From a virus (Duplodnaviria > Heunggongvirae > Uroviricota > Caudoviricetes): 39,308 nucleotides of DNA. The position numbers were made by a program, and so were the translations under genes. Under the pieces are notes generated by a model, which ran no database searches, was not told where the DNA came from, and saw only the letters and a program-made list of their open reading frames with translations. The DNA lies in IMG/VR virus record IMGVR_UViG_2541047861_000010, positions 1 through 39,308 of that record. The stretch is one strand, 5' to 3'. This document shows positions 2,110-38,663 of the stretch, piece after piece (the stretch's first letter is position 1; each line of letters begins with the position of its first letter).

Positions 2110-2119
2110 AGATATCCTT

Positions 2120-2836
2120 TTAATTAGGTTCAAAAATTTTAAATTCATTCCACGGCAATTTTTTCCAGTTACTGGATGGATCTTTCAACCATGCAGTGAC
2201 TTCCTTTAAATCACGGTTCGCAGTGGCGACGGGGGTATCGTATATCATTAACCATTTTTGTCGGGCGCGAACATAAGCACTGGCATAATCTTCCCATGAA
2301 GCGAAACAATCTTGTGCTCTTTGAGCATTCAGTAATAACACTATCCAGGCCTGGTTTTCATCGCACCAGCCTAAACCGGCGATGCAACGAGTTAAAAAAG
2401 CAGTGCGCATACAGTCAAACGCCAGCCCATCCAGAACCTGGCCTTGTGCTGCCAGTTGTTCGTAAAAATCATGTGGAGAATTACCAAGCCCTGTAGCCCA
2501 GCGCTGTAATATAACGCCAATTTGTTGACGGAAATCTTCGTTGCTTTGGTAAGTTTCTGTTCCTAGCTCTTGTTTAACCTGTAGTGCAAGTTGTTGACGC
2601 TTATCATCAGTCAACTTTAAATCTAACGTGAAGCCATTTACTGACAGTCCATTACGACGAGCAACTATATCACCAATTGCTAATGCCCACTTACGTCTCT
2701 TTGTTGCTCGTCTTTTGTCCTTGATTAGATCCTTTTCTTTTTCTTTAGCAATAAAAGCATCGATTTGTGGTTTGTTTTTTTTGTATCTATAGATAAAAAT
2801 AAATATTGCGACCAGGAGAACAATGATAAGACTCAT
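2120..2836 (-). CDS. Hypothetical membrane-anchored protein, 238 aa, single N-terminal hydrophobic helix
   Basis: ORF with ATG start; N-terminus SLIIVLLVAIFIFIYRY followed by KKNK looks like a signal anchor. Start overlaps stop of upstream gene (TAATG). Possibly DUF1266-like, unverified. Confidence 0.6.
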   Translation of the reverse strand: MSLIIVLLVAIFIFIYRYKKNKPQIDAFIAKEKEKDLIKDKRRATKRRKWALAIGDIVARRNGLSVNGFTLDLKLTDDKRQQLALQVKQELGTETYQSNEDFRQQIGVILQRWATGLGNSPHDFYEQLAAQGQVLDGLAFDCMRTAFLTRCIAGLGWCDENQAWIVLLLNAQRAQDCFASWEDYASAYVRARQKWLMIYDTPVATANRDLKEVTAWLKDPSSNWKKLPWNEFKIFEPN

Positions 2837-4050
2837 TATTTTTCAACCTCTGACAGGGGTAAGTAATGAGATGTCTGTAATGTCAAACTCTCTATCTCAA
2901 AGGAAATGTTGCTGATATTTTGACCTGCAAATTGCGGATGCCACTCAGCGCCAGGGAATAACATTTCCGCAGAAGTAGCAACTATAGGGTCAATAGCATT
3001 AAGATAATGTAACTTATCAGGTGCGCTGTGTAACAGTAACCACTGCAACTCCACTGAAGGATTTGTAAAATGTTCTAATAAATGAAAGTTATTATGTAGT
3101 ACGCTTAGTAAAAAACTGGTTTCGTATACTTCCGTTACATATTTCCACCCCTGATATTCAGGTGTATTTTCATAAACAATACCCATACCTTCACAATCAC
3201 TATGTCGAACTGCTTGTGGTGATAATAGTTGCAAAAGAGACAAAACATCGTCCGCATATTTTTTAACTGGATGACGATTTTGCTTACCTTTTATTTGATC
3301 AATTTCAAGTGAATCACCAACAACATTGAGAGCAATAGTAACATGAGGAATATTATTATTATCACGCAAACTGAATAACCGTAATTTATGTTGCTCAATT
3401 TGATTTGCATAATACTCACCATAACCACCGGTAAGATTTTTTCGATCATCAAACTGGCCTACGCAATGTTGCATATGCCATGATTCATAAGCCATTTCAC
3501 GACGAAGGTTCGAATGACTGGCATCAAACTCAACAATTTTTCCGTCTGGCACATCAAGTATTGACTTTACAGTATTTTGTTCACTCGGCTGCCACCCTTT
3601 CTCGCGTCGTTGAAGCATCTTTTCATGCTCTTCTTCACGCATTCTGAACGCAACGTAGCAGGTTATGCGCTGTAGTTTTGATTCCAGACGGGTACCACAT
3701 TTCCTGGAAAGAAATTCCACCAACTCCCGTTCTTTGGTTAATATTTGTTGATGATCGGTTTCGATATAATAAAGTGTCGCAGTTGATACTGAGGCAGTAT
3801 TAAACTTCGATACCAGCCATTCCGGGATTACATCATCATTTTTATTAAACAGTGAATATTCTGCAAGCGAGTTAATTTGTTGCACCATTGGAAAGTCACT
3901 AATTAGCCATCGATAAAAATGGTTGAGTAACCATTTTTGGATGGTCTCATTATCCTGGCGAAACAGACTTCTTTGCAAAATTGCTGTTTTTACTTCCGGG
4001 GCATTAATTACATCCCTTGCATTATAATTCTGGTGAATATTTCCAGTCAT
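2836..4050 (-). CDS. Hypothetical protein, 404 aa; first gene of AT-rich three-gene operon
   Basis: ORF with ATG start at 4048-4050. Hand-counted GC of a 60-nt sample in this island is about 32 percent, versus about 60 percent in a prophage structural-gene sample (23161-23220). No confident domain assignment. Confidence 0.6.
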   Translation of the reverse strand: MTGNIHQNYNARDVINAPEVKTAILQRSLFRQDNETIQKWLLNHFYRWLISDFPMVQQINSLAEYSLFNKNDDVIPEWLVSKFNTASVSTATLYYIETDHQQILTKERELVEFLSRKCGTRLESKLQRITCYVAFRMREEEHEKMLQRREKGWQPSEQNTVKSILDVPDGKIVEFDASHSNLRREMAYESWHMQHCVGQFDDRKNLTGGYGEYYANQIEQHKLRLFSLRDNNNIPHVTIALNVVGDSLEIDQIKGKQNRHPVKKYADDVLSLLQLLSPQAVRHSDCEGMGIVYENTPEYQGWKYVTEVYETSFLLSVLHNNFHLLEHFTNPSVELQWLLLHSAPDKLHYLNAIDPIVATSAEMLFPGAEWHPQFAGQNISNISFEIESLTLQTSHYLPLSEVEK

Positions 4051-4537: not shown

Positions 4538-5899
4538 ATGTTTAAACCGGAACTCCTTTCCCCGGCGGGAACGCTGAAAAATATGCGTTACGCTTTCGCT
4601 TATGGCGCAGATGCTGTTTATGCGGGCCAGCCGCGTTACTCCCTGCGTGTACGCAACAACGAATTCAACCACGAAAATCTTCAGCTCGGCATCAATGAAG
4701 CCCACGCGCTGGGGAAAAAGTTTTATGTCGTGGTCAACATTGCACCGCACAACGCCAAGCTGAAAACCTTTATCCGTGACCTGAAACCGGTGGTGGAAAT
4801 GGGGCCGGATGCGCTGATTATGTCCGATCCAGGGCTGATTATGCTGGTGCGTGAACACTTCCCGGAAATGCCAATCCACCTCTCGGTACAGGCTAACGCC
4901 GTAAACTGGGCGACGGTGAAATTCTGGCAGCAAATGGGTCTGACCCGCGTGATCCTCTCTCGCGAACTGTCACTGGAAGAGATTGAAGAGATCCGCAATC
5001 AGGTGCCGGATATGGAGATCGAAATCTTCGTTCACGGCGCGCTGTGCATGGCCTACTCCGGTCGCTGCCTGCTCTCTGGCTATATCAACAAGCGCGACCC
5101 GAACCAGGGCACCTGCACCAACGCCTGCCGCTGGGAGTACAATGTCCAGGAAGGGAAAGAAGATGACGTCGGCAACATCGTACACAAGTACGAGCCGATT
5201 CCGGTGCAAAATGTTGAGCCGACGCTGGGTATCGGCGCGCCAACCGACAAAGTGTTTATGATCGAAGAAGCCCAGCGTCCGGGCGAGTATATGACCGCGT
5301 TTGAAGATGAGCACGGCACTTACATCATGAACTCGAAAGATCTGCGCGCCATCGCCCATGTTGAACGCCTGACCAAAATGGGCGTGCATTCGCTGAAAAT
5401 CGAAGGCCGTACCAAATCTTTCTACTATTGCGCACGCACCGCGCAGGTTTACCGTAAAGCTATCGATGACGCCGCTGCGGGCAAACCGTTCGATACCAGC
5501 CTGCTGGAAACGCTGGAAGGTCTGGCGCATCGTGGCTATACCGAAGGTTTCCTGCGTCGTCATACCCACGACGATTATCAGAACTACGAATACGGTTATT
5601 CGGTTTCTGACCGCCAGCAGTTTGTTGGTGAGTTTACCGGTGAGCGCAAGGGGGAGCTCGCGGCGGTAGCGGTGAAAAATAAATTCTCCGTTGGCGACAG
5701 CCTTGAGCTGATGACGCCGCAAGGCAACATTAACTTTACCCTTGAGCATATGGAAAACGCCAAAGGTGAAGCGATGCCGGTCGCACCAGGCGATGGTTAT
5801 ACTGTGTGGCTCCCGGTGCCGCAGGATCTTGAGCTAAATTACGCGCTGCTGATGCGTAATTTCTCCGGGGAAACCACGCGTAACCCCCACGGTAAGTGA
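4538..5899 (+). CDS. yegQ: Peptidase U32-family protein YegQ (tRNA hydroxylation protein TrhP)
   Basis: 453-aa translation beginning MFKPELLSPAGTLKNMRYAFAYGADAVYAGQPRYSLRVRNNEF matches my recollection of E. coli YegQ in length and sequence; followed by cyaR as in E. coli K-12. Confidence 0.9.
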   Translation: MFKPELLSPAGTLKNMRYAFAYGADAVYAGQPRYSLRVRNNEFNHENLQLGINEAHALGKKFYVVVNIAPHNAKLKTFIRDLKPVVEMGPDALIMSDPGLIMLVREHFPEMPIHLSVQANAVNWATVKFWQQMGLTRVILSRELSLEEIEEIRNQVPDMEIEIFVHGALCMAYSGRCLLSGYINKRDPNQGTCTNACRWEYNVQEGKEDDVGNIVHKYEPIPVQNVEPTLGIGAPTDKVFMIEEAQRPGEYMTAFEDEHGTYIMNSKDLRAIAHVERLTKMGVHSLKIEGRTKSFYYCARTAQVYRKAIDDAAAGKPFDTSLLETLEGLAHRGYTEGFLRRHTHDDYQNYEYGYSVSDRQQFVGEFTGERKGELAAVAVKNKFSVGDSLELMTPQGNINFTLEHMENAKGEAMPVAPGDGYTVWLPVPQDLELNYALLMRNFSGETTRNPHGK

Positions 5900-5983: not shown

Positions 5984-6070
5984 GCTGAAAAACATAACCC
6001 ATAAAATGCTAGCTGTACCAGGAACCACCTCCTTAGCCTGTGTAATCTCCCTTACACGGGCTTATTTTTT
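5984..6070 (+). ncRNA. cyaR: Small regulatory RNA CyaR (RyeE), Hfq-dependent, with intrinsic terminator
   Basis: Sequence GCTGAAAAACATAACCCATAAAATGCTAGCTGTACCAGGAACCACCTCCTTAGCCTGTGTAATCTCCCTTACACGGGCTTATTTTTT matches recalled E. coli cyaR; ends in a hairpin (CCCTTACACGGG) plus U-tract. Confidence 0.85.
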
Positions 6071-12897: not shown

Positions 12898-12902
12898 TGT
12901 AT

Positions 12903-13430
12903 TTATTGTGGTAGCTCCGGCCATTCAGGATTTGCAGGATCCACACGACTGACCAGAACGCTGTAGCGTTCCCATGCCTCCAGTCGGCTGCGCTCCTCAT
13001 CTGTTGCCATATTCAGCCTGACAGCGCGCTCCAGCGGCAAAATCACGGATTCAGCTTCGGAAAGCAAAGCTGCCTTTTTTGACTCCGCCAGTTGCTGCTG
13101 TTCGTCTGCCGTATAAATCCGCTTAATCACGGCACCGTCCTTAAACATCCATTTACCTGAGTCATCAGCTCGTCGGTTGGCGGTAATATCAGGGACTTCA
13201 ACGACGCTGAACCCCTCTGGATTAAGCGTTGATGCATCTTTGGTAATGGCGACAATAATATTATTCTCATCGTAAACAATCTTTATTGTGTCTTCCTGAA
13301 AATGCTTTACCTCTTCATACCAGTTTTTTCCATCCTCTGAAAATAACCAGATAACGTCGAATTTTTTTGTTAGTTGATATTGTTCAATGGTTTTCGGATT
13401 TCCTGACCTTATATTTTTTAAATGCTGCAT
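12903..13430 (-). CDS. G: Tail fibre assembly protein gpG (175 aa), composition-mosaic
   Basis: 175 aa in the P2 G position; the N-terminal coding part is visibly AT-rich while the C-terminal part is GC-rich. Confidence 0.85.
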
Positions 13431-18008: not shown

Positions 18009-18646
18009 TTTGTCCCCTGTGTCCAGTTGTCTCCTGACTTAACACCACCGTGACCGTGGTCATCCACCTGAACGCCGTTAGACGTGAATTTCCCGTCGGT
18101 ATGCTCGATGTTGCCGTGCATCTTCCCGCCCTTCTGCACTTCCAGCGTGCCGGTAGTCAGTTTGTTAGTGCAGACCACTTCCGGTGTGTCCAGGGTGATG
18201 CGGGTTGACGCTTTCACCATGACCACCGGCACCGTGGCAGTAACAGAATCAGAAGCCGTCACGCTGGCCGTTTTAATTCCGCTTACCGTGAGTGCACTGG
18301 TTTCAGGTTCATACTCAATCACCGCCCCGTCAGGGAAACGGATATGCAGGGCATCCGCCGACGCAGACGGCGCGGGGTTATCGCCGGAATAAATCCCCGG
18401 CAGAACGAACGCCGTGTCGAGTTCACCGCCCACGGCCAGAATCAGCACCTGTTCCCCCACGGAAGGTGCCCACCATGTGCGCGAACGCCCGGCACGATGG
18501 GTCAGCCACTGAAGCCAGTCGGTGCACATGCCGCCGGTCTGCACACGGCAGCGACCGGCGTTAAGGTCGGTTTCGACGACAAGACCGGTGCGGATCATAT
18601 TGCGCAGTGCGCGCGCGAGTTCCTGGATATTTGATAGTGTGCTCAT
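18005..18646 (-). CDS. V: Baseplate spike protein gpV (213 aa)
   Basis: Start set at MSTLSNIQELARALRNMIRTG... by recalled similarity to the P2 V N-terminus; the longer upstream extension in the ORF track has no RBS. Confidence 0.85.
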   Translation of the reverse strand: MSTLSNIQELARALRNMIRTGLVVETDLNAGRCRVQTGGMCTDWLQWLTHRAGRSRTWWAPSVGEQVLILAVGGELDTAFVLPGIYSGDNPAPSASADALHIRFPDGAVIEYEPETSALTVSGIKTASVTASDSVTATVPVVMVKASTRITLDTPEVVCTNKLTTGTLEVQKGGKMHGNIEHTDGKFTSNGVQVDDHGHGGVKSGDNWTQGTK

Positions 18647-18692
18647 ATGACAATAATGGGGAACATATGCTCGAAAAACTATTGCAACCCGT

Positions 18693-18710
18693 TGTATCAT
18701 TTTCGGCACA
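18693..18710. promoter_or_regulatory. Candidate Ogr-box dyad TGT-N12-ACA in the V/moron divergent intergenic region
   Basis: TGTATCATTTTCGGCACA read directly; it has the recalled P2 late-promoter dyad form. Its spacing to the V start does not fit the canonical -55 position, so the assignment is tentative. Confidence 0.3.
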
Positions 18711-18729
18711 ACCAAGAAGGAGCCGAAGC

Positions 18730-19473
18730 ATGGATAAATATCAAATCTGGGAAAAACAAAAAGACACCATCGCCCATAAAGAATATTTAAAAATTTCCGA
18801 CACCAATTTACTTGGACATATACACATTGCCAATTATGAGGTGATTCAAAGTGAATTAAGCAAATTCAACTCTCCTGAAATTGTACTCCACTACTCACTT
18901 AATAGAAATGAATTAAAAAAAGAGAGCATAAATATATCAAGACATTTTCTCAACTATATCTCCTCAGCATTATCACTTAGAGATTCAACTCGAAATCTAC
19001 ATAAAATTAATGTGTTAAATATTGATAACATTACCAATAAATCCAGAGAAATCATCAATGAAGAATTTTTAAAAAATCCAATCATCAAATTAATGGAGGA
19101 TTTAAGAAACATCCTAACCCATCAAAAAATGATCTCCCCATTAATATCATCATTTATGCACCTCCAGAAAAAAATAAACATACACGGATTTGCATTTAAG
19201 ATTGAAACCATACTGGAGAATGACCGACTTTCTGGTAAATCAAAAGAATACCTGAAGTCAACAGAACAAAAAAATTTATTCATCTTGCCGATAATAGAGG
19301 AATACCAATACACAACTCTTAAATACCAGCACTGGCTTTTAGCTTGTATCCACAATGCTCATCAAAATACATACCCAGAATACTGGGAAGCAAGAAAAAA
19401 CATAATGGACGTCTGGGGTGGAGATATCCAACTAATACCTGAAGAGAGTGCCCTCACTTATTTGACCAGATAA
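18730..19473 (+). CDS. Hypothetical protein (247 aa), AT-rich moron at the P2 orf30 position between V and S
   Basis: ATG at 18730 with AAGGAG 10 nt upstream; hand-counted GC of a 60-nt sample is about 22 percent; opposite strand to all flanking tail genes. No recognisable domain. Confidence 0.7.
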   Translation: MDKYQIWEKQKDTIAHKEYLKISDTNLLGHIHIANYEVIQSELSKFNSPEIVLHYSLNRNELKKESINISRHFLNYISSALSLRDSTRNLHKINVLNIDNITNKSREIINEEFLKNPIIKLMEDLRNILTHQKMISPLISSFMHLQKKINIHGFAFKIETILENDRLSGKSKEYLKSTEQKNLFILPIIEEYQYTTLKYQHWLLACIHNAHQNTYPEYWEARKNIMDVWGGDIQLIPEESALTYLTR

Positions 19474-19506
19474 CAATCTAATTAGCTCACAAACATAAGA
19501 CACCTT

Positions 19507-19529
19507 GGCCACGATATTTTATCGTGGCC
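19507..19529 (+). terminator. Possible terminator hairpin after the moron
   Basis: Hairpin GGCCACGAT-ATTTTA-ATCGTGGCC; the downstream T-tract is weak (TTATAT). Confidence 0.35.
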
Positions 19530-19686
19530 TTATATGATAAAGCGACTACCTTCTATGAGCCCTTATAACTCTCATCCACTGCACATTTTCAAGTTACAAT
19601 TAAAGTTCATTTAGTTGAAATATAAAAAGGATGCCGTAAGAGGATAATGGCGATATTTCATCAATAAGGCGCAAGAAATGGCACAA

Positions 19687-23153: not shown

Positions 23154-23897
23154 TTAACTGGCTTTCTTTTTCGGGCGTCCACGTTTTGCCGGTGTCACGC
23201 TCCGGGTCTTACGCGGGGTACGGGTGGCCGCTTTTGGCTGCGGCTCCGGCTTCGGTTTCAGCTCCCGCTCCAGTCGTTCAATCTCTTTTTTGACGCCTGC
23301 CTGACAGTCGAGCTGTGTCGCACGTTGCAGATGCGCCAGCGCCCCTGCGGCATCACCAGCGTCACGCAGAAACAGACCGGTGATTTTGTGCAGCTTTGCG
23401 CGCACTTCATCAGGCATGTCAGCTGTGGCGGTCAGTTCAAGGGTGTCCGTCAGCAGGCGGGGATCCACAGACTCACCGGCAGCGTGGGCGCGCATGGCCG
23501 CGAGCGCGACCTCCTCGGTGAACATGTACGGCGGGGTACGGCGGTGTTTACCCGGCATGGTCAGACCGTACTTCAGGGCATAACGGACAATCTCCAGCGC
23601 ACCGGCAATATCGCCGGTATCCAGACGCCACAGCATGACCGTCATCAGAATGTCATCCTGTGCGCCTTTGCCCTGCTCCAGCACGCCGTTCACCCACGGC
23701 AACCAGAACGGCAGCAGTTCGCGCTTTTTCGCGGCCTTCAGCTCTTTTGAATAAATCGCTTTCAGTGTGCGCTGGTCTGCGGCCAGCTTGACCAGCATCT
23801 GCTCATAGACAGTTGCATGTCGCAGCGGGGCGGCTTCCCGCTGCGCGGTCATCGCTGCCGAGACCCGCATCATGTGGCGCTGTGCGGGACTCGTCAT
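23154..23897 (-). CDS. M: Terminase small subunit gpM (247 aa)
   Basis: 247 aa with a basic C-terminal tail; P2 M position. Confidence 0.9.
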   Translation of the reverse strand: MTSPAQRHMMRVSAAMTAQREAAPLRHATVYEQMLVKLAADQRTLKAIYSKELKAAKKRELLPFWLPWVNGVLEQGKGAQDDILMTVMLWRLDTGDIAGALEIVRYALKYGLTMPGKHRRTPPYMFTEEVALAAMRAHAAGESVDPRLLTDTLELTATADMPDEVRAKLHKITGLFLRDAGDAAGALAHLQRATQLDCQAGVKKEIERLERELKPKPEPQPKAATRTPRKTRSVTPAKRGRPKKKAS

Positions 23898-23900
23898 CGG

Positions 23901-24974
23901 TTACGCTCCCGGCTCTGCGGTCGCCTTAGCCGGTGTGGAGAAGTCACCGACCTTAATTTTTTCCACCAGACAACCGGCGGCGTAGTCTTCCACCACGTAA
24001 TCAATGTTCATTGACTCGTAGTTCTCCACGCGATCAAGTTTCGGGTTTTCCTCAATCACGCGGCGATGGCTGTCATCCATGTAGTAGATGGACAGGTTTT
24101 CCAGCTTCGTGATGAGCATCGCATCCGCCGGGAAGTACGGAACACGTACCGCCGGCAGATTACCGATGCGTTTCTGGCTGATGATGACGTCAGCGGCCAG
24201 CATTTCGCTGTTGTCCTGCTCCTTGTTGACGATGGGGAAATACTTGTCTGCCAGTAGCTGACGTCCCACAATCACCACAAGGTCAGGGTCTTCCTGATAC
24301 CACGGCTCAATCAGGTTGTTGGTCGCATCCATCACCAGTGCATCAAGGCTGGCATAATCACCGCCCTTGCCCACGCGGATAACCTCAGAGGTGGTGTGGC
24401 CTTCCTCGTCAGTGACCTTGCTCATCACGCGCGCCGGGGCTTCATTGCGGTATTTCTGCAGCCAGCCGACCGCCACATCCTGCAACATCGGATTGCTGCT
24501 GCGGTCAGAGGTTTCGGCACGCTTCACGCCGTTAAAACCGGCCATGATTAAATCAAGGGACTGGCGTTTGATAATGGCGTTACGGACACGGAGCTGGAAA
24601 TCCTGATAACGCGCCCACAGGTCAAGCGTTTTGTAGCGGATATAAAAATCGAAGTTAATCTGGTCGCATTCGTACTTGTTTGACGCCAGCTTCGAGAAGT
24701 CCTTCGGCTGACGCTCGGTGCCACCGGCGGTGTCGGTGGTGCTGGCGATGGAGCCGGTGACACCAATACCAATTTTTTCCCCTTTCATTTCGCTGACCGG
24801 CACAATGTTGATGCGGGTCAGAAAGTCAGAGGACTCCTGCATGGTGTTCATCAGGGTCTGGGTGACCGACGGTTCAACGGTGAATTTTTTCGACACATCA
24901 CCGGCGTCGATGCCGTTCAGTTCGGCAACACGGGACAGGTAGGCATTAAATTTAAAGCGGGTTTCCTGGCGCAT
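23901..24974 (-). CDS. N: Major capsid protein gpN (357 aa)
   Basis: 357 aa; P2 N length and position between O and M. Confidence 0.9.
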   Translation of the reverse strand: MRQETRFKFNAYLSRVAELNGIDAGDVSKKFTVEPSVTQTLMNTMQESSDFLTRINIVPVSEMKGEKIGIGVTGSIASTTDTAGGTERQPKDFSKLASNKYECDQINFDFYIRYKTLDLWARYQDFQLRVRNAIIKRQSLDLIMAGFNGVKRAETSDRSSNPMLQDVAVGWLQKYRNEAPARVMSKVTDEEGHTTSEVIRVGKGGDYASLDALVMDATNNLIEPWYQEDPDLVVIVGRQLLADKYFPIVNKEQDNSEMLAADVIISQKRIGNLPAVRVPYFPADAMLITKLENLSIYYMDDSHRRVIEENPKLDRVENYESMNIDYVVEDYAAGCLVEKIKVGDFSTPAKATAEPGA

Positions 24975-25886: not shown

Positions 25887-26059
25887 TGTCAGGAGTCCTG
25901 AATAGTGATTAGAGGAGTCAAATGTCGGCATCAGTTTCCCGACGATGCGCATCCTCCGCCATCAGTCCCGGATGGCTTATCACTGACACAACAGCACCTT
26001 AGCGAATCGCGGGGCGCGACTCAGTAGCCTTGCCGTGTATTCATCACGGCGAGGTATTC
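25887..26059. promoter_or_regulatory. Divergent late-promoter region for the O-side and P-Q operons
   Basis: Intergenic region between divergently oriented O and P, where P2 late promoters lie. No perfect TGT-N12-ACA dyad found; an inverted repeat CCGTG-N7-CACGG is present at 26033-26049. Confidence 0.4.
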
Positions 26060-27832
26060 ATGACCATCACCACAGACACCACTCTTTTACACGACCCGCG
26101 TCGTCAGGCGGCGCTGCTGTACTGGCAGGGATTTTCCGTGCCGCAGATTGCCGCCATGTTGCAGATGAAACGCCCGACGGTGCAGAGCTGGAAACAGCGC
26201 GACGGCTGGGACAGTGTTGCCCCCATCAGCCGTGTCGAAATGAGTCTGGAAGCGCGGCTGACCCAGCTCATCATCAAACCGCAGAAAACCGGCGGTGACT
26301 TCAAGGAAATTGACCTGCTCGGACGCCAGATTGAACGACTGGCACGGGTAAACCGCTACAGCCAGACCGGCAACGAGGCAGACCTTAATCCGAACATCGC
26401 TAACCGCAACAAAGGCGGGCGTCGCAAACCGAAAAAGAATTTTTTCAGTGACGAGGCCATCGAAAAGCTGGAGCAGATTTTCTTTGAGCAGTCTTTCGAA
26501 TATCAGTTGCACTGGTATCGCGCCGGGCTTGAGCACCGCATCCGCGATATCCTGAAATCCCGCCAGATTGGCGCGACGTTTTATTTTTCCCGCGAGGCGC
26601 TGCTGCGCGCCCTGAAAACCGGTCATAACCAGATTTTTCTGTCGGCCAGTAAAACGCAGGCGTATGTGTTCCGCGAATACATCATCGCCTTTGCCCGGCT
26701 GGTTGACGTTGACCTGACCGGTGACCCGATTGTCCTGGGCAATAACGGCGCAAAACTGATTTTTCTCGGCACCAACTCCAACACCGCACAGAGCCATAAC
26801 GGCGACCTGTACGTCGATGAGATTTTCTGGATCCCGAATTTTCAGGTACTGCGTAAGGTGGCATCAGGTATGGCCTCACAGAGTCACCTGCGCTCGACCT
26901 ATTTCTCCACCCCGTCCACGCTGGCGCACGACGCCTACCCGTTCTGGTCGGGTGAACTGTTCAACCGGGGACGCGCCAGCGCCGCCGAACGCGTGGAAAT
27001 CGACGTCAGTCATAACGCCCTTGCCGGTGGGCTTCTCTGTGCGGACGGCCAGTGGCGGCAGATTGTCACCATTGAGGACGCGCTGAAAGGCGGCTGCACA
27101 TTGTTCGACATTGAGCAGCTTAAACGTGAAAACAGCGCCGACGATTTTAAAAACCTGTTCATGTGTGAATTTGTTGACGACAAGGCGTCGGTGTTCCCGT
27201 TCGAGGAGCTGCAACGCTGCATGGTCGACACGCTGGAAGAATGGGAAGACTATGCGCCGTTTGCCGCGAATCCGTTCGGCTCCCGCCCGGTATGGATTGG
27301 TTACGACCCGTCACACCGTGGCGACAGTGCCGGATGCGTGGTGCTGGCACCGCCGGTGGTGGCCGGTGGCAAATTCAGAATACTTGAGCGTCACCAGTGG
27401 AAAGGCATGGACTTTGCCACTCAGGCTGAATCCATCCGCAAACTCACCGAAAAATACAACGTCGAATACATCGGTATTGATGCCACCGGCCTCGGTGTCG
27501 GCGTGTTCCAGCTCGTGCGCTCGTTCTATCCCGCCGCGCGCGACATCCGCTACACGCCGGAAATGAAAACCGCAATGGTGCTCAAGGCAAAAGACGTTAT
27601 CCGCCGTGGCTGTCTGGAATATGACGTCAGCGCCACCGACATCACCAGCTCGTTTATGGCTATCCGCAAGACCATGACCAGCAGCGGACGCAGTGCCACC
27701 TATGAGGCCAGCCGCAGCGAGGAAGCCAGCCACGCCGACCTCGCCTGGGCGACCATGCACGCCCTGTTAAATGAGCCACTCACCGCCGGTATCAGCACCC
27801 CGCTGACATCCACCATTCTGGAGTTTTACTGA
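26060..27832 (+). CDS. P: Terminase large subunit (ATPase/endonuclease) gpP (590 aa)
   Basis: Start at MTITTDTTLLHDPRRQAALLYWQGF (GAGG 7 nt upstream) matches P2 P; stop overlaps Q start (TGATG). Confidence 0.9.
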   Translation: MTITTDTTLLHDPRRQAALLYWQGFSVPQIAAMLQMKRPTVQSWKQRDGWDSVAPISRVEMSLEARLTQLIIKPQKTGGDFKEIDLLGRQIERLARVNRYSQTGNEADLNPNIANRNKGGRRKPKKNFFSDEAIEKLEQIFFEQSFEYQLHWYRAGLEHRIRDILKSRQIGATFYFSREALLRALKTGHNQIFLSASKTQAYVFREYIIAFARLVDVDLTGDPIVLGNNGAKLIFLGTNSNTAQSHNGDLYVDEIFWIPNFQVLRKVASGMASQSHLRSTYFSTPSTLAHDAYPFWSGELFNRGRASAAERVEIDVSHNALAGGLLCADGQWRQIVTIEDALKGGCTLFDIEQLKRENSADDFKNLFMCEFVDDKASVFPFEELQRCMVDTLEEWEDYAPFAANPFGSRPVWIGYDPSHRGDSAGCVVLAPPVVAGGKFRILERHQWKGMDFATQAESIRKLTEKYNVEYIGIDATGLGVGVFQLVRSFYPAARDIRYTPEMKTAMVLKAKDVIRRGCLEYDVSATDITSSFMAIRKTMTSSGRSATYEASRSEEASHADLAWATMHALLNEPLTAGISTPLTSTILEFY

Positions 27833-28866
27833 TGAGCAAGAAAAAAGGGAAAACACCGCAACCTGCGGCAAAAAAAATGACCGCCAGCGCCCCGAAAATG
27901 GAGGCATTCACCTTTGGTGAGCCGGTGCCGGTACTCGACCGCCGTGACATTCTGGATTACGTCGAGTGCATCAGTAACGGCAGATGGTATGAGCCGCCGG
28001 TCAGCTTTACCGGTCTGGCAAAAAGCCTGCGTGCTGCCGTGCATCACAGCTCGCCGATTTACGTTAAACGCAATATTCTGGCCTCGACATTTATCCCGCA
28101 TCCGTGGCTTTCACAGCAGAATTTCAGCCGCTTTGTGCTGGACTTTCTGGTGTTCGGTAATGCGTTTCTGGAAAAGCGTTACAGCACCACCGGCAAGGTC
28201 ATCAGACTGGAAACCTCACCGGCAAAATATACCCGCCGTGGTGTGGAGGAGGATGTTTACTGGTGGGTGCCTTCCTTCAACGAGCCGACAGCCTTCGCAC
28301 CTGGCTCCGTGTTTCATCTGCTGGAGCCGGATATTAATCAGGAGCTGTACGGCCTGCCGGAATATCTCAGCGCCCTTAACTCTGCCTGGCTGAATGAGTC
28401 GGCCACGCTGTTCCGCCGCAAGTATTACGAAAACGGCGCACATGCCGGATACATCATGTATATCACCGACGCATTGCAGGACCGCGATTACATTGACTCA
28501 CTTCGCGAAAACATGGCCAGGTCGAAAGGCCGCAATAACTTTAATAATCTGTTTCTCTATGCACCGCAGGGAAAGCCAGACGGCATCAAAATTATCCCGC
28601 TCAGTGAAGTGGCGACAAAGGACGATTTTTTTAATATCAAAAAATCCAGCGCCGCTGACCTGCTGGACGCGCACCGCATCCCCTTTCAGTTGATGGGCGG
28701 CAAGCCGGAGAACGTCGGGTCGCTGGGCGATATTGAGAAAGTGGCAAAGGTCTTTGTCCGCAATGAGCTTATCCCGTTACAGGACAGGATTCGGGAAATA
28801 AACGGCTGGCTCGGTCAGGAGGTCATCCGCTTTAAAAACTACTCACTGGACACTGACAACGGCTGA
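27832..28866 (+). CDS. Q: Portal protein gpQ (344 aa)
   Basis: 344 aa; P2 Q length and position next to cos. Confidence 0.9.
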   Translation: MSKKKGKTPQPAAKKMTASAPKMEAFTFGEPVPVLDRRDILDYVECISNGRWYEPPVSFTGLAKSLRAAVHHSSPIYVKRNILASTFIPHPWLSQQNFSRFVLDFLVFGNAFLEKRYSTTGKVIRLETSPAKYTRRGVEEDVYWWVPSFNEPTAFAPGSVFHLLEPDINQELYGLPEYLSALNSAWLNESATLFRRKYYENGAHAGYIMYITDALQDRDYIDSLRENMARSKGRNNFNNLFLYAPQGKPDGIKIIPLSEVATKDDFFNIKKSSAADLLDAHRIPFQLMGGKPENVGSLGDIEKVAKVFVRNELIPLQDRIREINGWLGQEVIRFKNYSLDTDNG

Positions 28867-28871
28867 ACATC

Positions 28872-28893
28872 GCCGCCTGCGGGCGGCTTTTTT
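28872..28893 (+). terminator. Rho-independent terminator after Q
   Basis: Hairpin GCCGCC-TGCG-GGCGGC followed by T6. Confidence 0.6.
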
Positions 28894-29035
28894 ACACCCC
28901 GTCATCACGCCCTCACACGCTCACCACCGCACAAAACACCCCGCAGACACACCAACGCCTCAACGGGCAGACTAAGCGCGGTCACGACGCGCTCAGGCGC
29001 TGAAAAAATAAAATCAGCACCACCGCCTGCGCGCA

Positions 29036-29054
29036 GTGCTTTCCCCGCCTCGCC
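29036..29054. other. cos site (19-nt cohesive-end sequence)
   Basis: GTGCTTTCCCCGCCTCGCC is the reverse complement of the P2 cohesive end as I recall it (GGCGAGGCGGGGAAAGCAC); located next to Q as in P2. Confidence 0.75.
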
Positions 29055-29095
29055 CGCCCGCTTCATGGGTCGGTTTTAATGCAGTTGTATTTAAT

Positions 29096-29128
29096 GGAAA
29101 AAGCCCTCCAGGACTGGAGGGCTTTTCT
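29096..29128. terminator. Bidirectional rho-independent terminator between cos and the cargo operon
   Basis: Hairpin GCCCTCC-AGGACT-GGAGGGC flanked by A5 upstream and TTTTCTATT downstream, so T-tracts on both strands; about 60 nt past the stop of the last cargo gene. Confidence 0.55.
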
Positions 29129-29182
29129 ATTAGAGTTCGTAAAATGCTCATGCAAATTCACGCGTTATGCTGCAAAAAACAA

Positions 29183-30250
29183 TCATTTCTTAGCTTTCAC
29201 AACCGGATGCGCGCGATCATGTCCACCGCCACGATGCTTAGAAAATATAACCTTTTCATTAGTAAAAGGTTTTTGGCCATAGACACTATCATAGTGGAAA
29301 AAGACGTTCGGAAGATGAGGCACACGGATGAATCCATACTTCACTCTAGTATCACCGATGACCCCAAAAACCCTTGTACTTACTGGGTAGCATAGTTCAC
29401 CACAACGCATCACTAATTCATCTGCTGTTGGGCGTTCAGAAGGTTCCAATTTTAAACAATCTTCTATAAGTTTAATTATTTCATTTGCCAATGGCGCATA
29501 CTGTCTATTTGAAAATATAAAGTCAGGGTAAGGAACATGCGTGCCAGAAAGTATTTTTGGTATAGCCATATAACCAATACCAAAAGGGTATTTTCCAGTA
29601 AGAATCCTGAACATCATCGCACCCAATGCCCAAATATCTGTAGGTTTCGAAACCTTACCTTGACTCTGTATGATTTCCGGTGCCATATATGGCAAAGCCC
29701 CGATAGCCGTTTGCGAAGAACTAATTGAATCTTGACCATTTCTTGCAGCCTCATCAATTTCATCTCCGGCCATCTTTGAAATGCCGAAATCCGTAATTTT
29801 TATCTCTGTAGCATTGATACCACCGCCTACCATTATATTTGAAGGTTTGAGGTCCCGGTGTATGACGTCAACATGATGCGAAGCAGACAGAGCTTTAGCT
29901 AAATTATGAAATATTTTAGCAGTTAAATATGGATCAACACTTGAATAAGTGTCTAAAATAGCCTTATCCAAGTCAACTCCATCAATAAATTCCTCCGTTA
30001 AAAACTCTCTACCCTCATCATCAATGAAGTAATCTAAGGTTTTAGCCACATTAGGATGATTAACCCTTGATGCTAATATTGCACTTCTATGAAACCTTTT
30101 TTCAGCAGATTTATTTTTGGGAGTTTTGAGAGCCACATGCCTCGAGAGAATATTATCCATTGCCAAATAAACTTTTTGCATACCGCCTTCACCAATCTCC
30201 CTCAATATTGTATATCTGCTAACTTGAATTCCTGGAGTCAGATTTATCAT
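29183..30250 (-). CDS. Hanks-type Ser/Thr protein kinase with C-terminal cold-shock-like (OB-fold) domain (355 aa)
   Basis: Kinase motifs present: G-loop GEGGMQKV, VALK lysine, HRDLKPSN, DFG, APE. C-terminal 60 aa (VFGVIGDTRVKYGFIRVPHLPNVFFHYDSVYG...EKVIF) aligns by eye to the CspA pattern. AT-rich; start overlaps upstream stop (ATGA). Confidence 0.85.
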   Translation of the reverse strand: MINLTPGIQVSRYTILREIGEGGMQKVYLAMDNILSRHVALKTPKNKSAEKRFHRSAILASRVNHPNVAKTLDYFIDDEGREFLTEEFIDGVDLDKAILDTYSSVDPYLTAKIFHNLAKALSASHHVDVIHRDLKPSNIMVGGGINATEIKITDFGISKMAGDEIDEAARNGQDSISSSQTAIGALPYMAPEIIQSQGKVSKPTDIWALGAMMFRILTGKYPFGIGYMAIPKILSGTHVPYPDFIFSNRQYAPLANEIIKLIEDCLKLEPSERPTADELVMRCGELCYPVSTRVFGVIGDTRVKYGFIRVPHLPNVFFHYDSVYGQKPFTNEKVIFSKHRGGGHDRAHPVVKAKK

Positions 30251-31311
30251 AACACCACCTCCGGATGGGAAAGGTCAAATGTAATGAAGACCCGCTCTTT
30301 TCTTGGCCGAGAAGTCTCTCCCAGAATAATAACACATGAATCAGGCAAAATATTATATTGCTTTGCAGCTATATTATTCACATACACCTCACCACTTAAA
30401 CTCGATATATAAAACTCTGAACCAGAATATTTCACCTCAATAGTCCCGACCCCTGAATTATTAAAAGCCGCAGATTTATTTGTTGAAGAAATGATGACGG
30501 GTGGAGTGTTATCAGAGATTAACAATGCTCTATGAGAGTTGTAGAGAACGAATTTTTTTAGAGTCTGACACACATCAGCCATATCAGGTCTCTCACAAGG
30601 ATTCGTATCTAAACATTGGAAAAGCAATTCTTTTACCTGAGTTGGTAACTGTATATTAGAATTATCAAAAGGATTAGACAATAATTTTTTGGGTAAAACT
30701 CTCATTTCCGGTGGTAGTGGGGTCTTAGCCAAAAACATGGCCGTTACAGCAAAAGCATATGTATCTATGGATTTTGTAAACGCTACTTGATGTAAAAATA
30801 ATTCAGGTGCAGCATATGTTGGGGTTCCTTTAAAACCTATTGTATTAGCTTCATCAACATTTCTAGATAGTCCGAAGTCATAAATCTTCACTACTCCCTC
30901 AGAATCAATTTTCATGTTCCCAGGCTTGATATCCCTATGAATAATATCATGAGAATGTATCTCAGAAATACCCGAAGATATTTGCCACAAAATTTTAATC
31001 AGATCTTCAGAATTTAATATGCGATCCTCTACTTCCAATAATGAAGGTCCGTCAACATACTCTTCGACTATAGCAATTCCTTTACCTTGATAATTAATAA
31101 CATCATAAAGCTCTACTACATGTTTTGATCTTAATTTCATCAATGCTGATAACTCATCCATCATTCGAGGAGAATCATCAGGATTACTTATGGACTTTAT
31201 AGCGACAAATCTTTCGAGGTGAGTATCCAAGCATTTGATCACGCAACCAAATCCTCCCGAAGCCTCTTCTTCAGTCCTCTTATATCTTGCAGGGAGAGTA
31301 AAATTAGTCAT
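30247..31311 (-). CDS. Hanks-type Ser/Thr protein kinase with C-terminal FHA-like domain (354 aa)
   Basis: Kinase motifs present: GGFGCV, VAIK, HRDIKPGN, DFG, APE. C-terminal segment (SSLSGEVYVNNIAAKQYNILPDSCVIILGE) resembles the FHA signature. RBS AAGGAG 7 nt upstream. Confidence 0.85.
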   Translation of the reverse strand: MTNFTLPARYKRTEEEASGGFGCVIKCLDTHLERFVAIKSISNPDDSPRMMDELSALMKLRSKHVVELYDVINYQGKGIAIVEEYVDGPSLLEVEDRILNSEDLIKILWQISSGISEIHSHDIIHRDIKPGNMKIDSEGVVKIYDFGLSRNVDEANTIGFKGTPTYAAPELFLHQVAFTKSIDTYAFAVTAMFLAKTPLPPEMRVLPKKLLSNPFDNSNIQLPTQVKELLFQCLDTNPCERPDMADVCQTLKKFVLYNSHRALLISDNTPPVIISSTNKSAAFNNSGVGTIEVKYSGSEFYISSLSGEVYVNNIAAKQYNILPDSCVIILGETSRPRKERVFITFDLSHPEVVL

Positions 31312-32470
31312 CTTTATCTCCTTTAGTGGAGTTTTTCTCAGAGAATGAAATATCTAACTGTGAAATATTATCTAACTTATCATTATTGTTAGCTTCGATA
31401 ACATTCCTTCCCTCATCACTCTTTATATTACTATTTTTTTTCTTTGTACGTGATTTCCTTTTCGATACATTTTTTTTGTTAGAAATTTCATTACTGCATT
31501 CTAACTCAGTAACTTTTCTATCAATAACATTTTCAACCGTAGCTGAGTTAGGTATATCTAACGGCGCAGGTTGCACGCTAATTACTTTCATCTCACCAAA
31601 AGGATCCCATAAATTAATTACATCCCCAGATGATACATCCAAAGCACTTAGGATGTTCGAAATCTCAACTACCGCAATCGACGCATTATCAAATCCACCA
31701 AACCAACTAGCTAGATCTATAACTCTTTTAGCGAACACTCCAGTATTATTGGAGTGAGCATATAATTTTCTCAAATTATTACTGTCAATGGTATGAGCAC
31801 CATCTGAAGTTAATGCAACCACCCCAGGTACGAGCCGAATATCGTGAAAATGTATCTCAAGAACACCATCAAGACCTATAAACTGTACTAACTCGCCACC
31901 TAACCTAGAATCAATAACACCTGAGTCACTACCAAGATGCTCATTATATTTCTTTGCCAATACAGCTAATGTATCATCCTCACTAATTTGTTTTATGTGT
32001 TCAGCATTAATGGAATATATGCGACTATCCCCGACATTTATTGCTGTAATGTTATCGGAGTCATCTACAGCTAAGGCAGATAACGTAGCCCCACCGTTCC
32101 CATTATATACTTTCAAAACCGATTCATTTGCTTTTAAAACGGCGATTTCAAGACATTGTCTAATTGGCAAGCCTGAGTGTTTAATTATCTCGGTAAAAAA
32201 AGATGATACGGTCAATGAAGCAGCATTCGCTCCCCCTTCCATCCCCCCCATACCATCTGCTAAAGCGATGACAATCATGTCCTTATTCTTACTAAAAGGA
32301 CGAAATTTTAATACAGCTACCCGGTCTTGGTTCTCTTTCCTAACTAAACCTATGTCTGTAGCAATAGCTGCAGGTAGCATAGATACTCTTCGTACAGATG
32401 AAGAGATATTTTTTCTATGCAGCCAAGCGTGTATCTGTTCATGAAGGATCTCGTAAGAGTCTCGACTCAC
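31304..32470 (-). CDS. PP2C-family Ser/Thr protein phosphatase with Lys-rich disordered C-terminal tail (388 aa)
   Basis: PP2C motifs ALADGMGG, VGDSR and TSDG read in the translation. GTG start with GAGGAGG 4 nt upstream; 3' end overlaps the downstream kinase start by 8 nt (ATGACTAA). Confidence 0.8.
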   Translation of the reverse strand: MSRDSYEILHEQIHAWLHRKNISSSVRRVSMLPAAIATDIGLVRKENQDRVAVLKFRPFSKNKDMIVIALADGMGGMEGGANAASLTVSSFFTEIIKHSGLPIRQCLEIAVLKANESVLKVYNGNGGATLSALAVDDSDNITAINVGDSRIYSINAEHIKQISEDDTLAVLAKKYNEHLGSDSGVIDSRLGGELVQFIGLDGVLEIHFHDIRLVPGVVALTSDGAHTIDSNNLRKLYAHSNNTGVFAKRVIDLASWFGGFDNASIAVVEISNILSALDVSSGDVINLWDPFGEMKVISVQPAPLDIPNSATVENVIDRKVTELECSNEISNKKNVSKRKSRTKKKNSNIKSDEGRNVIEANNNDKLDNISQLDISFSEKNSTKGDKDD

Positions 32471-32691
32471 AGCGCCTCCTCAAGCAAGCATTTCTCCGAA
32501 GCTATAGATTACAAAACACTAACGGCAATTCCTAGCATTACCCACTCAATTCCATTAGAAAACTGACGTAGTACAGTTAGTTGAATATTATTGTGATGAC
32601 GAATGCCAATCCTCTGATCACGCTGATTACAATATCACAACTCCCCGCTCTCCGATTCACAGTATTCAGTGATACAGAATATCACCTCGTA
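32471..32691 (-). promoter_or_regulatory. Probable promoter/leader region of the phosphatase-kinase-kinase cargo operon
   Basis: AT-rich 221-bp non-coding gap between the stop of gene A and the start of the phosphatase gene; no specific -10/-35 assigned. Confidence 0.3.
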
Positions 32692-34977
32692 CTATATACA
32701 TCGTTGATTTATTGGAAGCCCCGGCCACTCATCAACAACCGGATATGTAAATTTTTTCTCGCCATATGCCACCCTCGCACCTCGTGCTAGTACATCCAGC
32801 TCCCACCGTTCCGGCGTGATGCCATGCTGTGCGAGGTCAAACCGGATACGCGATATCTGGTCGCGCTGCGATTTAGTCAGCCTTGCCGATGGCGCAATTT
32901 CATTAGGTTTTAACGGGCCTCCGTTTCTCTGCTGACGATTTGGTGTTCTCAGGCCGTGTTTTAATGCGCCCCTGAGCGCCCTCACTACATCCGGGTCATT
33001 CCATTCGATAACACCTTCATCAACCAGATTAAGTACTGCTGCGGCGTGCTCAGAAGGTGTGGGAGCCGGTAACGAAGTATCACCACCAGTGAGCTTTCCA
33101 CAGTTATTGACAGGACTCCGAGGCGCGGCGATGCCGCTTTTTAAAGTCAAAGGCTCAACGACCGGAACTTTCGGCACAATGCGCCAGTCCGTCGTTCTGG
33201 TGATATGAATATGACGCGCGCCGAGATGCGGCGCGTAAATGCCGACCACCCTCTCGACCTCTTCCTCGTACTCGTTAACGTCATCCGACGGGCTACGGGC
33301 GACTCTGACAGTCTGACAATCGCGCGGGACATTTGCCCCACCCTGCGCGCTGATATACAACGCAAAATCACCACTGTCTGCGGCGGCGCGTGCAGCCTCG
33401 ACGCGCTCGTCAAACTCATCAGCAATGCTGACGCCGCGCGGCAATTTGCGTAGTTCACGGTAAGCCCCCATTGTCGGCAGACCAACCGTTTTAAATTGCG
33501 GGATGCGCCACGTTGACGCCCATGCGGTAACAGCCGCAGCAGTGTCTTTCAGCGGCCTGCCGGTATCGTTATCGAGCTGACCATCCAGTGCATAGCCGTC
33601 GATGTTTTTTGAGATGTATTTCGCGATATACCCCGCAGCACCGCCCCGGTTAAGGTGTTTTGCCTGAAAACGGTTTCGCGCGGCTCCTCTTTCATCGCCA
33701 TCCTCTTTGAGCGCATAGCGACGCATGATTTCGATAATCTGGTTACGCTGGCGCGGATTACAAAAAAGCATCATATGCCAGTGCGGCGTTCCGTCGTGGT
33801 GTGGCTCGACGACACGCAAACCGTAGACCTGTAAATCATTATCCTTGAATGCCGTGCGCATCAGGCTCCAGATACGGCAGAGATAACGCTGCGCATCCTT
33901 TGGATTAAATGCCTCATCGTTCCAGCCGTGATTTAGCTGGACGGTTTTACTTTCGCCTTTTCTGACCTGACGTGTCGGGTGATACTTTGACGGCGCGGTC
34001 AGCGTGATAAACATCCCCACATCACCCTCTGCTGCGGCGTAACGCTCAATACCGGCAATGGTGTTCATCAGCTCCATCCGGCGAATTTCAGGATTAGAAA
34101 TACTGCCCATCACCTTACTGATAAGGTCGATGCGCTCGCCGGTTTCCCTGTTTTCGAGATCACACGATTTAAGAAATTCCAGATTTGCCTGGCGGCGTGC
34201 ACGCACATCACGAATGGCATGTTTACTGGCATAAGGAGAACGGTCTTTATTGACCTCCCCGACAGCAATCAGTAACGCCTCATGCCAGCGCATACGCTGG
34301 CCTTTAAGCTGATGGGTCCACCACTCATCGTTAAACAGACGGGCAATGGCAGAATATGCCTGCCTCGTGGTCATCTGCCCTTTACGGTATTTTTTCCAGT
34401 AGAGCGGGGAAATATTGAAAGCACGTGCAGCACCAGCAACATGACCATAGAGGTGAGCCTGCGCCTCATCCGTAAACAGCGATTCTTTTTCGCCATGCGC
34501 ATCCCCCCAGGCATCGCAGAGTTCCTCATACATCATGAAAAGCTGCGATGAGATACGGGCGGCAAACTTTTTCAGCTCCTTGTCATTCATCCCCGGCAGA
34601 CGCGCATAATGGTCACGCTCTGCCAGAAACAGCAACGACGCGTCGGTGTTCATTTCATGGCGCTGATTCACACGCTCAATGCGCGGCCATAAACGACGCT
34701 GAAAAGTGGATGTGAGAAAATAAAACCCGTGCACCGGGCTTTTATTGCGCCGGATGTAGTCATAGCGTGACGTAAACAGCGAGCGCAAAAAGTAAGGCAG
34801 GCGGTTAATCGTGGATAAAACACCTTGCACCTGACGCATCTCGTCACGTGTAAGGGGTCTTTCGCGCCCGACAGCCTCGCGTGGCGCGTTCCATGCATAA
34901 GCACCGGTAAACGCCTTACCGGTGCCTGCGGCAAATGCTGACGGAGGGACAAAACGCCCGGAGGCTTTAACGGCCAT
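32692..34977 (-). CDS. A: Replication initiation endonuclease gpA (761 aa)
   Basis: Start set at MAVKASGRFVPPSAFAAGTGK to match the recalled P2 A N-terminus and length; sequence closely resembles P2 A. Confidence 0.9.
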   Translation of the reverse strand: MAVKASGRFVPPSAFAAGTGKAFTGAYAWNAPREAVGRERPLTRDEMRQVQGVLSTINRLPYFLRSLFTSRYDYIRRNKSPVHGFYFLTSTFQRRLWPRIERVNQRHEMNTDASLLFLAERDHYARLPGMNDKELKKFAARISSQLFMMYEELCDAWGDAHGEKESLFTDEAQAHLYGHVAGAARAFNISPLYWKKYRKGQMTTRQAYSAIARLFNDEWWTHQLKGQRMRWHEALLIAVGEVNKDRSPYASKHAIRDVRARRQANLEFLKSCDLENRETGERIDLISKVMGSISNPEIRRMELMNTIAGIERYAAAEGDVGMFITLTAPSKYHPTRQVRKGESKTVQLNHGWNDEAFNPKDAQRYLCRIWSLMRTAFKDNDLQVYGLRVVEPHHDGTPHWHMMLFCNPRQRNQIIEIMRRYALKEDGDERGAARNRFQAKHLNRGGAAGYIAKYISKNIDGYALDGQLDNDTGRPLKDTAAAVTAWASTWRIPQFKTVGLPTMGAYRELRKLPRGVSIADEFDERVEAARAAADSGDFALYISAQGGANVPRDCQTVRVARSPSDDVNEYEEEVERVVGIYAPHLGARHIHITRTTDWRIVPKVPVVEPLTLKSGIAAPRSPVNNCGKLTGGDTSLPAPTPSEHAAAVLNLVDEGVIEWNDPDVVRALRGALKHGLRTPNRQQRNGGPLKPNEIAPSARLTKSQRDQISRIRFDLAQHGITPERWELDVLARGARVAYGEKKFTYPVVDEWPGLPINQRCI

Positions 34978-35242
34978 ATGAGCCAAAAGCCTCTGAACAA
35001 CGCTTGCTGAGTTGCTCAACCTGCACGTTTAAATCAGCAAAAGACTTTGCGCTTCCGGTCAGAATATCGTGATGCATCAGGCCGGAAACGAGCTGGCTTA
35101 ATTTCGGGTAATAACCAACCACCGACAGCCATTCCTGACCGGCGTTTTTACCGCTTTCCGCTCTCTTTTTCTCGTGGAGAATAAACTGAAAGCTGTCACT
35201 GGTAACGACATAACGTTCGCCAATTTCAATACGAATACTCAT
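34967..35242 (-). CDS. P2 orf83-like early protein (91 aa)
   Basis: Position between orf82 and A; ATGA overlap with orf82 stop. Confidence 0.7.
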   Translation of the reverse strand: MSIRIEIGERYVVTSDSFQFILHEKKRAESGKNAGQEWLSVVGYYPKLSQLVSGLMHHDILTGSAKSFADLNVQVEQLSKRCSEAFGSYGR

Positions 35243-38635: not shown

Positions 38636-38663
38636 AATCTCCCTTACACGGGCTTATTTTTTA
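38636..38663. repeat. Prophage attachment-site core, int-proximal copy (28-bp direct repeat)
   Basis: AATCTCCCTTACACGGGCTTATTTTTTA identical to 6044-6071. Confidence 0.85.

Follow-up and report, generated by a model that had tools for sequence, protein, structure and literature searches.

We conclude that the DNA analysed in the present study (39,308 nucleotides, referred to here as the window) very probably contains an intact P2-like (Peduovirus) prophage in which the cos site is flanked by two converging operons. One is the late P-Q operon of the phage. The other is a cargo operon located in a known hotspot, and its predicted terminator occupies the position at which related elements carry a dyad in the flank of cos. 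The features on which this account is based are as follows, in the order of their coordinates.

27832-28866, + strand: portal gene Q, which closes the late P-Q operon and reads towards cos (Phage_portal Pfam match; 97% identical stretch to P2 1-9369; P2 Q is annotated at 187-1221).
28872-28893, + strand: tQ, the intrinsic terminator of the P-Q operon, with the stem GCCGCC/GGCGGC followed by TTTTTT (terminator scan; aligns with the annotated P2 tQ, 160-181).
28894-29035, no strand: non-coding left cos flank, conserved among P2-like phages (alignments with P2, P4, and 186).
29036-29054, - strand: cohesive-end sequence (cos nick region) GGCGAGGCGGGGAAAGCAC, 19 nt (exact and unique match; identical to P2 cosL/cosR).
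29055-29090, - strand: right cos core TGCATTAAAACCGaCCCatgAAGcGGGCg, common to P2, P4, and 186, together with the adjoining ATACAAC (family consensus ATGCAAC) (alignment).
29099-29126, no strand: perfect 13-bp inverted repeat AAAAGCCCTCCAG-tc-CTGGAGGGCTTTT, located where the family carries its cos-flank dyad (fold and repeat search).
29150-29174, - strand: degenerate phased TGCAT repeats, with TGCAT at -71 (29150-29154), TGCAG at -91 (29170-29174), and the middle repeat lost.
29183-30250, - strand: Ser/Thr kinase 2, 355 aa, encoded by the final gene of the cargo operon (Pkinase E = 5e-45; PD-T4-6-type models E = 5e-50; VALK, HRD, DFG, and APE motifs).
30247-31311, - strand: Ser/Thr kinase 1, 354 aa, with a 4-nt overlap with kinase 2 (Pkinase E = 2e-42; VAIK, HRD, DFG, and APE motifs).
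31304-32470, - strand: PP2C-like phosphatase, 388 aa, with an 8-nt overlap with kinase 1 (PP2C_2 E = 5e-6; RefSeq "PP2C family protein-serine/threonine phosphatase").
32692-35019, - strand: replication gene A, the inner border of the variable region (Phage_GPA E = 5e-123; P2 homology restarts at window position 32720).

The first-pass annotation of this DNA placed a 19-nt cos at 29036-29054, and this assignment proved to be exact, unique, and that of a genuine P2-type cos. In a pattern scan of the window, GGCGAGGCGGGGAAAGCAC matched at 19 of 19 positions on the - strand without a mismatch, and it was the single match even when up to three mismatches were allowed (chance expectation, 0.01). These 19 nt aligned base for base with cosL/cosR of P2 (NC_001895), and P2 position 1 corresponded exactly to window position 29054; the conserved flanks aligned on both sides. 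When the junction of the right and left ends of P2 was compared with the reverse complement of the window, homology was unbroken from gene Q through tQ and cos to approximately 31-36 nt to the right of the nick, where the similarity ended. Megablast homology to 75 phage records stopped at 29084-29091. The cos of 186 differs at 2 of the 19 positions. The cos of these phages is described as approximately 55 bp and strongly conserved between P2 and P4 (Ziermann and Calendar 1990, as cited in PMC9594776). The window matches the pattern of this ~55-bp core common to P2 and P4 to the right of the nick, TGCATTAAAACCG.CCC...AAG.GGGC. On the left, the flank is common to P4 only in the 7 nt abutting cos, GCGCGCA on the + strand (TGCGCGC in the P2 orientation). 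Moreover, cos and the core are identical to working P2 sequences, and cos sits between the gene A side and portal gene Q/tQ in an element that encodes the terminase genes P and M. We concluded that 29036-29054 is the cos of the prophage, at which a staggered cut by terminase is predicted to generate 19-nt cohesive ends.

Judging from its base composition and its distribution, the cargo is a horizontally acquired, low-GC operon in the classic variable TO region, the defence hotspot between gene A and cos. It reads on the - strand from 32470 down to 29183 in the order PP2C-like phosphatase, kinase, and kinase. The phosphatase gene has a GTG start with GAGGAGG upstream, and the TGA stop of kinase 2 is at 29183-29185. 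The GC content falls from 50-60% in the phage backbone to 33-41% over 29100-32700, and P2 homology breaks at 32720 and approximately 29090, which bound the variable gene set. The identical cargo was present in 14 of 5426 complete E. coli genomes, in which the Q-cos side had 2153 matching genomes, and it was absent from 50,697 phage records. Both kinases matched the PADLOC models of the PD-T4-6 and mad6 kinases. Kinase 2 aligned with profile positions 6-265 of 311 of the PD-T4-6 model with its catalytic motifs intact, which is membership at the sequence level only. PD-T4-6 is a single-gene system, whereas the cargo in the window comprises two kinases and a phosphatase.

The cargo had been described as lying at the extreme end of the genome, and our results support this description. 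It would form the right end of linear virion DNA, the place of old/tin in P2 and of tum/orf97 in 186, and after cutting it would lie within 130 bp of that end. A search for a sigma-70 promoter upstream of the cargo on the - strand found none with at least 9 of 12 consensus positions; the best candidate was TTGCCG-16-TATAGC with 8 of 12 (32471-32691). Furthermore, the terminator scan found no terminator-like site on the - strand in the 221-bp gap (32471-32691) between the stop of gene A (32692) and the cargo. Therefore, transcripts of the early operon may continue into the cargo, and in lytic growth they may also be ended by the hairpin (29099-29126). Expression of the cargo through this read-through during lytic growth is possible.

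A bidirectional terminator had been assigned to 29096-29128. The span was right, and both strands have the anatomy of a terminator. The arms of the hairpin (29099-29111 and 29114-29126) are 13 nt each and 100% complementary, with a spacer of 2 nt. The RNA fold had z-scores of -3.9 (- strand) and -5.4 (+ strand), and shuffled sequences never folded equally well. On the - strand, which is the sense of the cargo, the stem GCCCUCCAG/CUGGAGGGC (13 bp with an A-U extension) is followed by UUUUUCC and begins 56 nt past the TGA stop. On the + strand, this stem precedes UUUUCUAUU; this version is weaker, with four uninterrupted U against five on the - strand. Simple terminator scans miss the hairpin on the + strand because the A-T extension of the stem consumes the T-tract, and bidirectionality was judged from the fold and the sequence. 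An Rfam search of the hairpin region returned sub-threshold matches only, to the terminator parts of leader and sRNA models, and no known RNA family. We concluded that 29099-29126 is a predicted bidirectional intrinsic terminator that is stronger on the - strand. The distances between the nick and the hairpin (44 nt), the hairpin and the stop (56 nt), and the nick and the stop (128 nt) are all within the 150 bp given earlier for the distance of cos from the cargo operon terminator.

The surroundings of the hairpin were compared across P2-, 186-, and P4-like elements. The core common to P2, P4, and 186 was used as a pattern and retrieved at least 120 IMG/VR loci, which were anchored on the core and reduced to 57 representatives with less than 85% identity over the 100 nt to the right; distances were counted from the start of the core. 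TGCA was found at -6 in 49 of the 57 flanks. Position -72 was occupied by TGCAT in 48 flanks and position -82 likewise in 48, and approximately 33 of the 57 had it at -92/-95, against a background expectation for TTGCAT of 0.04 occurrences per position in this set. P2, P4, and 186 each carry three phased TGCAT repeats. The consensus, TGCAT-N5-TGCAT-N3-TTTGCATGCG, has a period of approximately 10 bp, close to one turn of the helix, and lies at a fixed distance from the core in approximately 84% of the 57 flanks, while the surrounding sequence is variable. The repeats are located 100-125 bp to the right of the nick in loci L006-L125, at approximately 33450-33480 in P2 (NC_001895), and at the right ends of P4 and 186. 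We found no description of TGCAT repeats beside the cos of P2, P4, or 186 in the literature searched.

Between these repeats and the core lies a GC-rich dyad with the consensus gcCAG..cTGgcg. The dyad was analysed in an alignment (A1) built from the pattern-selected loci, in which the selection itself makes the specified core positions invariant, and the TGCA next to the core shows at least 90% conservation. The 13 pairs of the window hairpin were formed in 59% of the cells of A1, against 33-47% when the partners were slid by 1-3 columns. The covariation score was 0.295, against 0.19 or less in controls, and none of 500 shuffles reached it; the structure tested was taken from the window itself, which favours the dyad, and the sequences are related. 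Perfect stems of at least 5 bp were found at the dyad position in 31% of cases and in 25% in control windows. Since this enrichment is slight, the claim of a family-wide dyad is based on the pair counts in A1, and we regard it with moderate confidence. P2 itself has no dyad at this position of the flank, which indicates that the dyad is not needed for packaging.

The genes beside the flank appear to respect its outer limit. At the 29 loci in which the nearest open reading frame points to cos, most of these frames stop 94-137 nt from the core, just beyond the repeats. Kinase 2 of the window stops at -99 from the core, 9 nt outside the ~125-bp right flank. The median folding energy of the flank was -13.1 kcal/mol when the gene pointed towards cos and -8.3 kcal/mol when it pointed away (p = 0.001), and this link between orientation and stability weakened to p = 0.05 once composition was controlled, among loci that are phylogenetically non-independent. 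These comparisons suggest that the right cos flank is a module of approximately 125 bp with a constrained layout (core, ATGCAAC, dyad, and phased TGCAT repeats), which the cargo genes abut. In the lineage of the window, the flank dyad appears to have become a full predicted intrinsic terminator that serves the cargo operon.

A different reading builds on the first-pass annotation: the hairpin belongs to the cassette simply as its terminator and has nothing to do with cos, and the cargo enters the head last and is thus injected first. The hairpin is strictly linked to the cargo in E. coli: it lies within a 97-nt stretch (29086-29182) that was found only alongside this cargo (14 of 5426 complete genomes). 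This flank variant is therefore linked to the cassette and not to the phage backbone. The hairpin also has the canonical anatomy of a terminator and lies in variable DNA past the end of megablast homology. However, TTTGCATG (29150-29157) has been kept between the hairpin and the gene, and its distance to the centre of the dyad is equal, by eye, to that in the 186-like flank L084. The centre of the hairpin, CCAG-NN-CTGG, is common to the family dyad. Moreover, the 186-like locus L113, whose cargo is different and encodes a 107-aa protein that resembles S24 peptidases at its N-terminus, carries a related terminator, GCCCGCCAGTCCCGACGGGCTTTTT, at the same place. The stem in the window was by far the strongest among the flanks compared. 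From these alignments, we conclude that the hairpin is not simply the terminator of the cargo; it lies at a family-wide dyad position inside the conserved right cos flank. The reading as a terminator unrelated to cos, with the cargo packaged last, is a serious alternative that we nevertheless consider somewhat unlikely.

The order of packaging bears on the second half of that reading. The claim that the cargo is the last DNA packaged was not supported, because position alone gives no order and nearly all that P2 and P4 have in common is to the cargo side of the nick. The literature searched did not yield the packaging polarity of P2, and many of the matches concerned P22. P2 and P4 rely on one and the same terminase for packaging (PMC9122126). 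All of the sequence that they share is to the right of the nick, on the cargo side, except approximately 7 nt on the left. In lambda, the end bearing the terminase-binding site (cosB) enters first. If this rule is applied to a recognition sequence shared by P2 and P4 on the cargo side, the cargo end would be the first packaged; this is an argument by analogy and not proof. In P4, cos has the hotspot genes gop-beta-cII on its left and the core gene psu on its right. Since this hotspot is on the opposite side of cos, last packaging of the cargo cannot be a general rule.

We tentatively propose a broader interpretation of the flank, although we rate it as unlikely. The ~125 bp to the right of the nick in P2, P4, and 186 might be an accessory part of cos, a cosB-like site at which the small terminase subunit or a host factor assembles, and the dyad might have been turned into a cargo terminator in the present case. 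If so, the 3' UTR of the cargo mRNA would carry the TGCAT repeats, and cassettes would be swapped with their own copy of the flank. If terminase assembles on the right flank, the cargo end would be packaged first and not last. The conservation of the ~125-bp flank suggests a packaging signal that is longer than the 55-bp core and from which cargo genes are kept out. This extended layout is the sole part of the present results that might be new. It may be of use in building P2/P4 cosmids or transducing particles and in defining the boundaries of the hotspot.

A related alternative is that the inverted repeat is mainly a packaging element, either a dyad-symmetric site for protein binding or a cruciform in an extended cos, and that termination is incidental. 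The position of the dyad is fixed between cos-flank motifs in P2-, 186-, and P4-like elements, and its arms covary. Furthermore, a cosmid with longer cos flanks was transduced better, and its authors suggested the flanks as a possible cause (PMC9594776). However, the type phage P2 is without the dyad, and the published description of cos gives it a length of approximately 55 bp (Ziermann and Calendar 1990, as cited in PMC9594776). U-tracts are present only in the versions of the window and L113, and the window version also has a flanking A-tract; these are needs of a terminator and not of a binding site. Flanks beside genes that point to cos also fold more stably, which fits a role in transcription. 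We consider a primary function in packaging to be improbable and retain the interpretation of the hairpin as a terminator at the dyad position.

The cargo operon (- strand) and the late P-Q operon (+ strand) converge on cos, and each has one terminator. The tQ hairpin has its U-tract on the + strand only. The interval between tQ and the cargo hairpin measures 205 bp and includes the left flank, the nick, and the core. Insulation of the cargo from Q, which the first-pass annotation asserted, is therefore a reasonable inference from the sequence, and we regard it as plausible. In our reading, late transcription of P-Q on the + strand stops at tQ (28872-28893), and the cargo transcript most likely ends at the 13-bp hairpin (29099-29126). 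The A and T tracts of this hairpin could also stop leftover late transcription arriving from the other side. The two terminators would leave approximately 205 bp around the nick without transcription, and keeping RNA polymerase off cos may be of benefit. The hairpin would itself be derived from the family dyad.

The window is a segment of the E. coli chromosome, of which a tested 3.85 kb was 100% identical to strains FY26 and NCTC11151. A complete P2-like prophage extends from attL at 6044 to attR at 38663. In a blastn comparison with the whole P2 genome, it was collinear with P2 at 86-98% identity. Unmatched P2 segments were confined to the orf30 and Z/fun loci, part of the tail-fibre gene H, a small stretch of the immunity region, and the gene A-cos (TO) region. 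The P2 attP core (24355-24382) was present at both ends of the prophage. The open reading frames of P, Q, O, N, M, L, and the tail genes are near the length of their P2 counterparts; the terminase genes are P at 26030-27832 and M at 23154-23897, the latter inside a block with 97% identity to P2. Prophages of the P2 type frequently cannot be induced, and cos might be a relic in a defective prophage from which nothing is packaged, so that its proximity to the cargo would have no functional meaning, but the full synteny with P2, the lengths of these frames, the functional P2 sequence of cos and its core, and the two att cores make this very improbable.

Several other loci of the prophage and its surroundings were observed. 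The prophage lacks the second of the known cargo sites, the Z/fun locus (P2 15275-17522); the P2 blocks that flank it abut at approximately 12899-12903, between the tail-fibre assembly gene G (12903-13430) and the F operon, and the site is free of cargo here. The orf30 locus of P2, the third known variable site, is replaced at 18647-19684 by unrelated DNA. An open reading frame at this site (18607-19473, + strand, 288 aa) has no Pfam match. Outside the prophage, which adjoins the host gene yegQ (peptidase U32), this gene lies at 4538-5899, to the left of attL. Three open reading frames at 1-4050 on the - strand have DUF4034, DUF1266, and PcfJ-like domains and may belong to another island. We also considered whether the "plasmid unnamed3" of strain NDM2 (L127 = NZ_CP083887.1, 43,140 bp, labelled circular) represents an excised phage circle. 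This record contains the chromosomal genes asmA, dcd, udk, alkA, and yegQ in addition to most of the prophage, has many frameshifted genes, and duplicates a region of the NDM2 chromosome. The candidate was rejected, and an assembly artefact is the most likely origin of the record.

The right end of P2, called the TO region (tin-old), is one of three loci of horizontally acquired genes in P2-like phages (PMC3091744). Rousset et al. (2022; PMC9122126) defined the gpA-cos-gpQ locus as a defence hotspot and reported that the hotspots of P2 and P4 directly adjoin cos. Their Table S5A lists a P2 locus with the kinases WP_021546119 and WP_000181134 (PMC9122126). These are the RefSeq accessions of the NDM2 cargo, which is 99.6% identical to that of the window. 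Furthermore, pFR102, entitled "Phoshatase + kinase + kinase", was cloned from E. coli E1167 with its native upstream region, and it is listed among the "additional tested systems" of Table S2B and not among the validated systems of Table S2A (PMC9122126). The insert of pFR102 begins at approximately 32573 on the - strand of the window (CTAACTGTACTACGTCAG...), and the reverse primer terminates within the final codons of gene Q. Therefore, the clone spans the cargo, the hairpin, cos, and tQ. The terminator and the extended flank layout are not mentioned in the main text or in the searched portion of the supplement text of Rousset et al. (PMC9122126). Table S1B of the same study lists a similar "Pkinase | Pkinase | PP2C" system, no. 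67, with 10 occurrences, in the P4 hotspot (PMC9122126).

For the phage family as a whole, the arrangement described here was known before, and the literature already includes this very locus. The value of the present analysis is mainly one of annotation: it defines the predicted termini of the virion DNA of this prophage, assigns the phosphatase/kinase/kinase operon to a known hotspot adjacent to cos, and identifies a strong predicted terminator embedded in the cos flank.

Comparisons with known phages place this arrangement as follows. P2 (NC_001895) has the same gene A-cos locus, in which non-essential, acquired, low-GC genes lie within approximately 150 bp of the cohesive end, and its 19-nt cos, right core, and tQ are identical or nearly identical to those of the window. 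However, old and tin of P2 read away from cos, with a transcript start approximately 150 nt from cosR, so that the neighbour of cos is a promoter and not a terminator. The cargo also differs (the OLD nuclease and Tin in P2, and a phosphatase and two kinases in the window), and the P2 flank is without the dyad. Phage 186 (NC_001317) resembles the window in that its accessory tum-orf97 SOS operon reads towards cos and has an annotated intrinsic terminator, t95b, near the right cohesive end; its right flank similarly consists of the core, ATGCAAC, the dyad, and TGCAT repeats. In contrast, t95b is 161-188 nt from the right end, outside the TGCAT repeats, whereas the terminator in the window is 45-72 nt from the end, inside the flank and at the dyad position. 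The cos of lambda (cosQ-cosN-cosB) also combines a staggered nick with asymmetric recognition elements, and the TGCAT repeats recall the R sites of cosB. By this analogy, the repeats might be the terminase-binding counterpart of the R sites, which we offer as a lead only. The two types of cos share no sequence similarity, and their overhangs differ, with 12 nt in lambda and 19 nt in the P2-type cos of this prophage.
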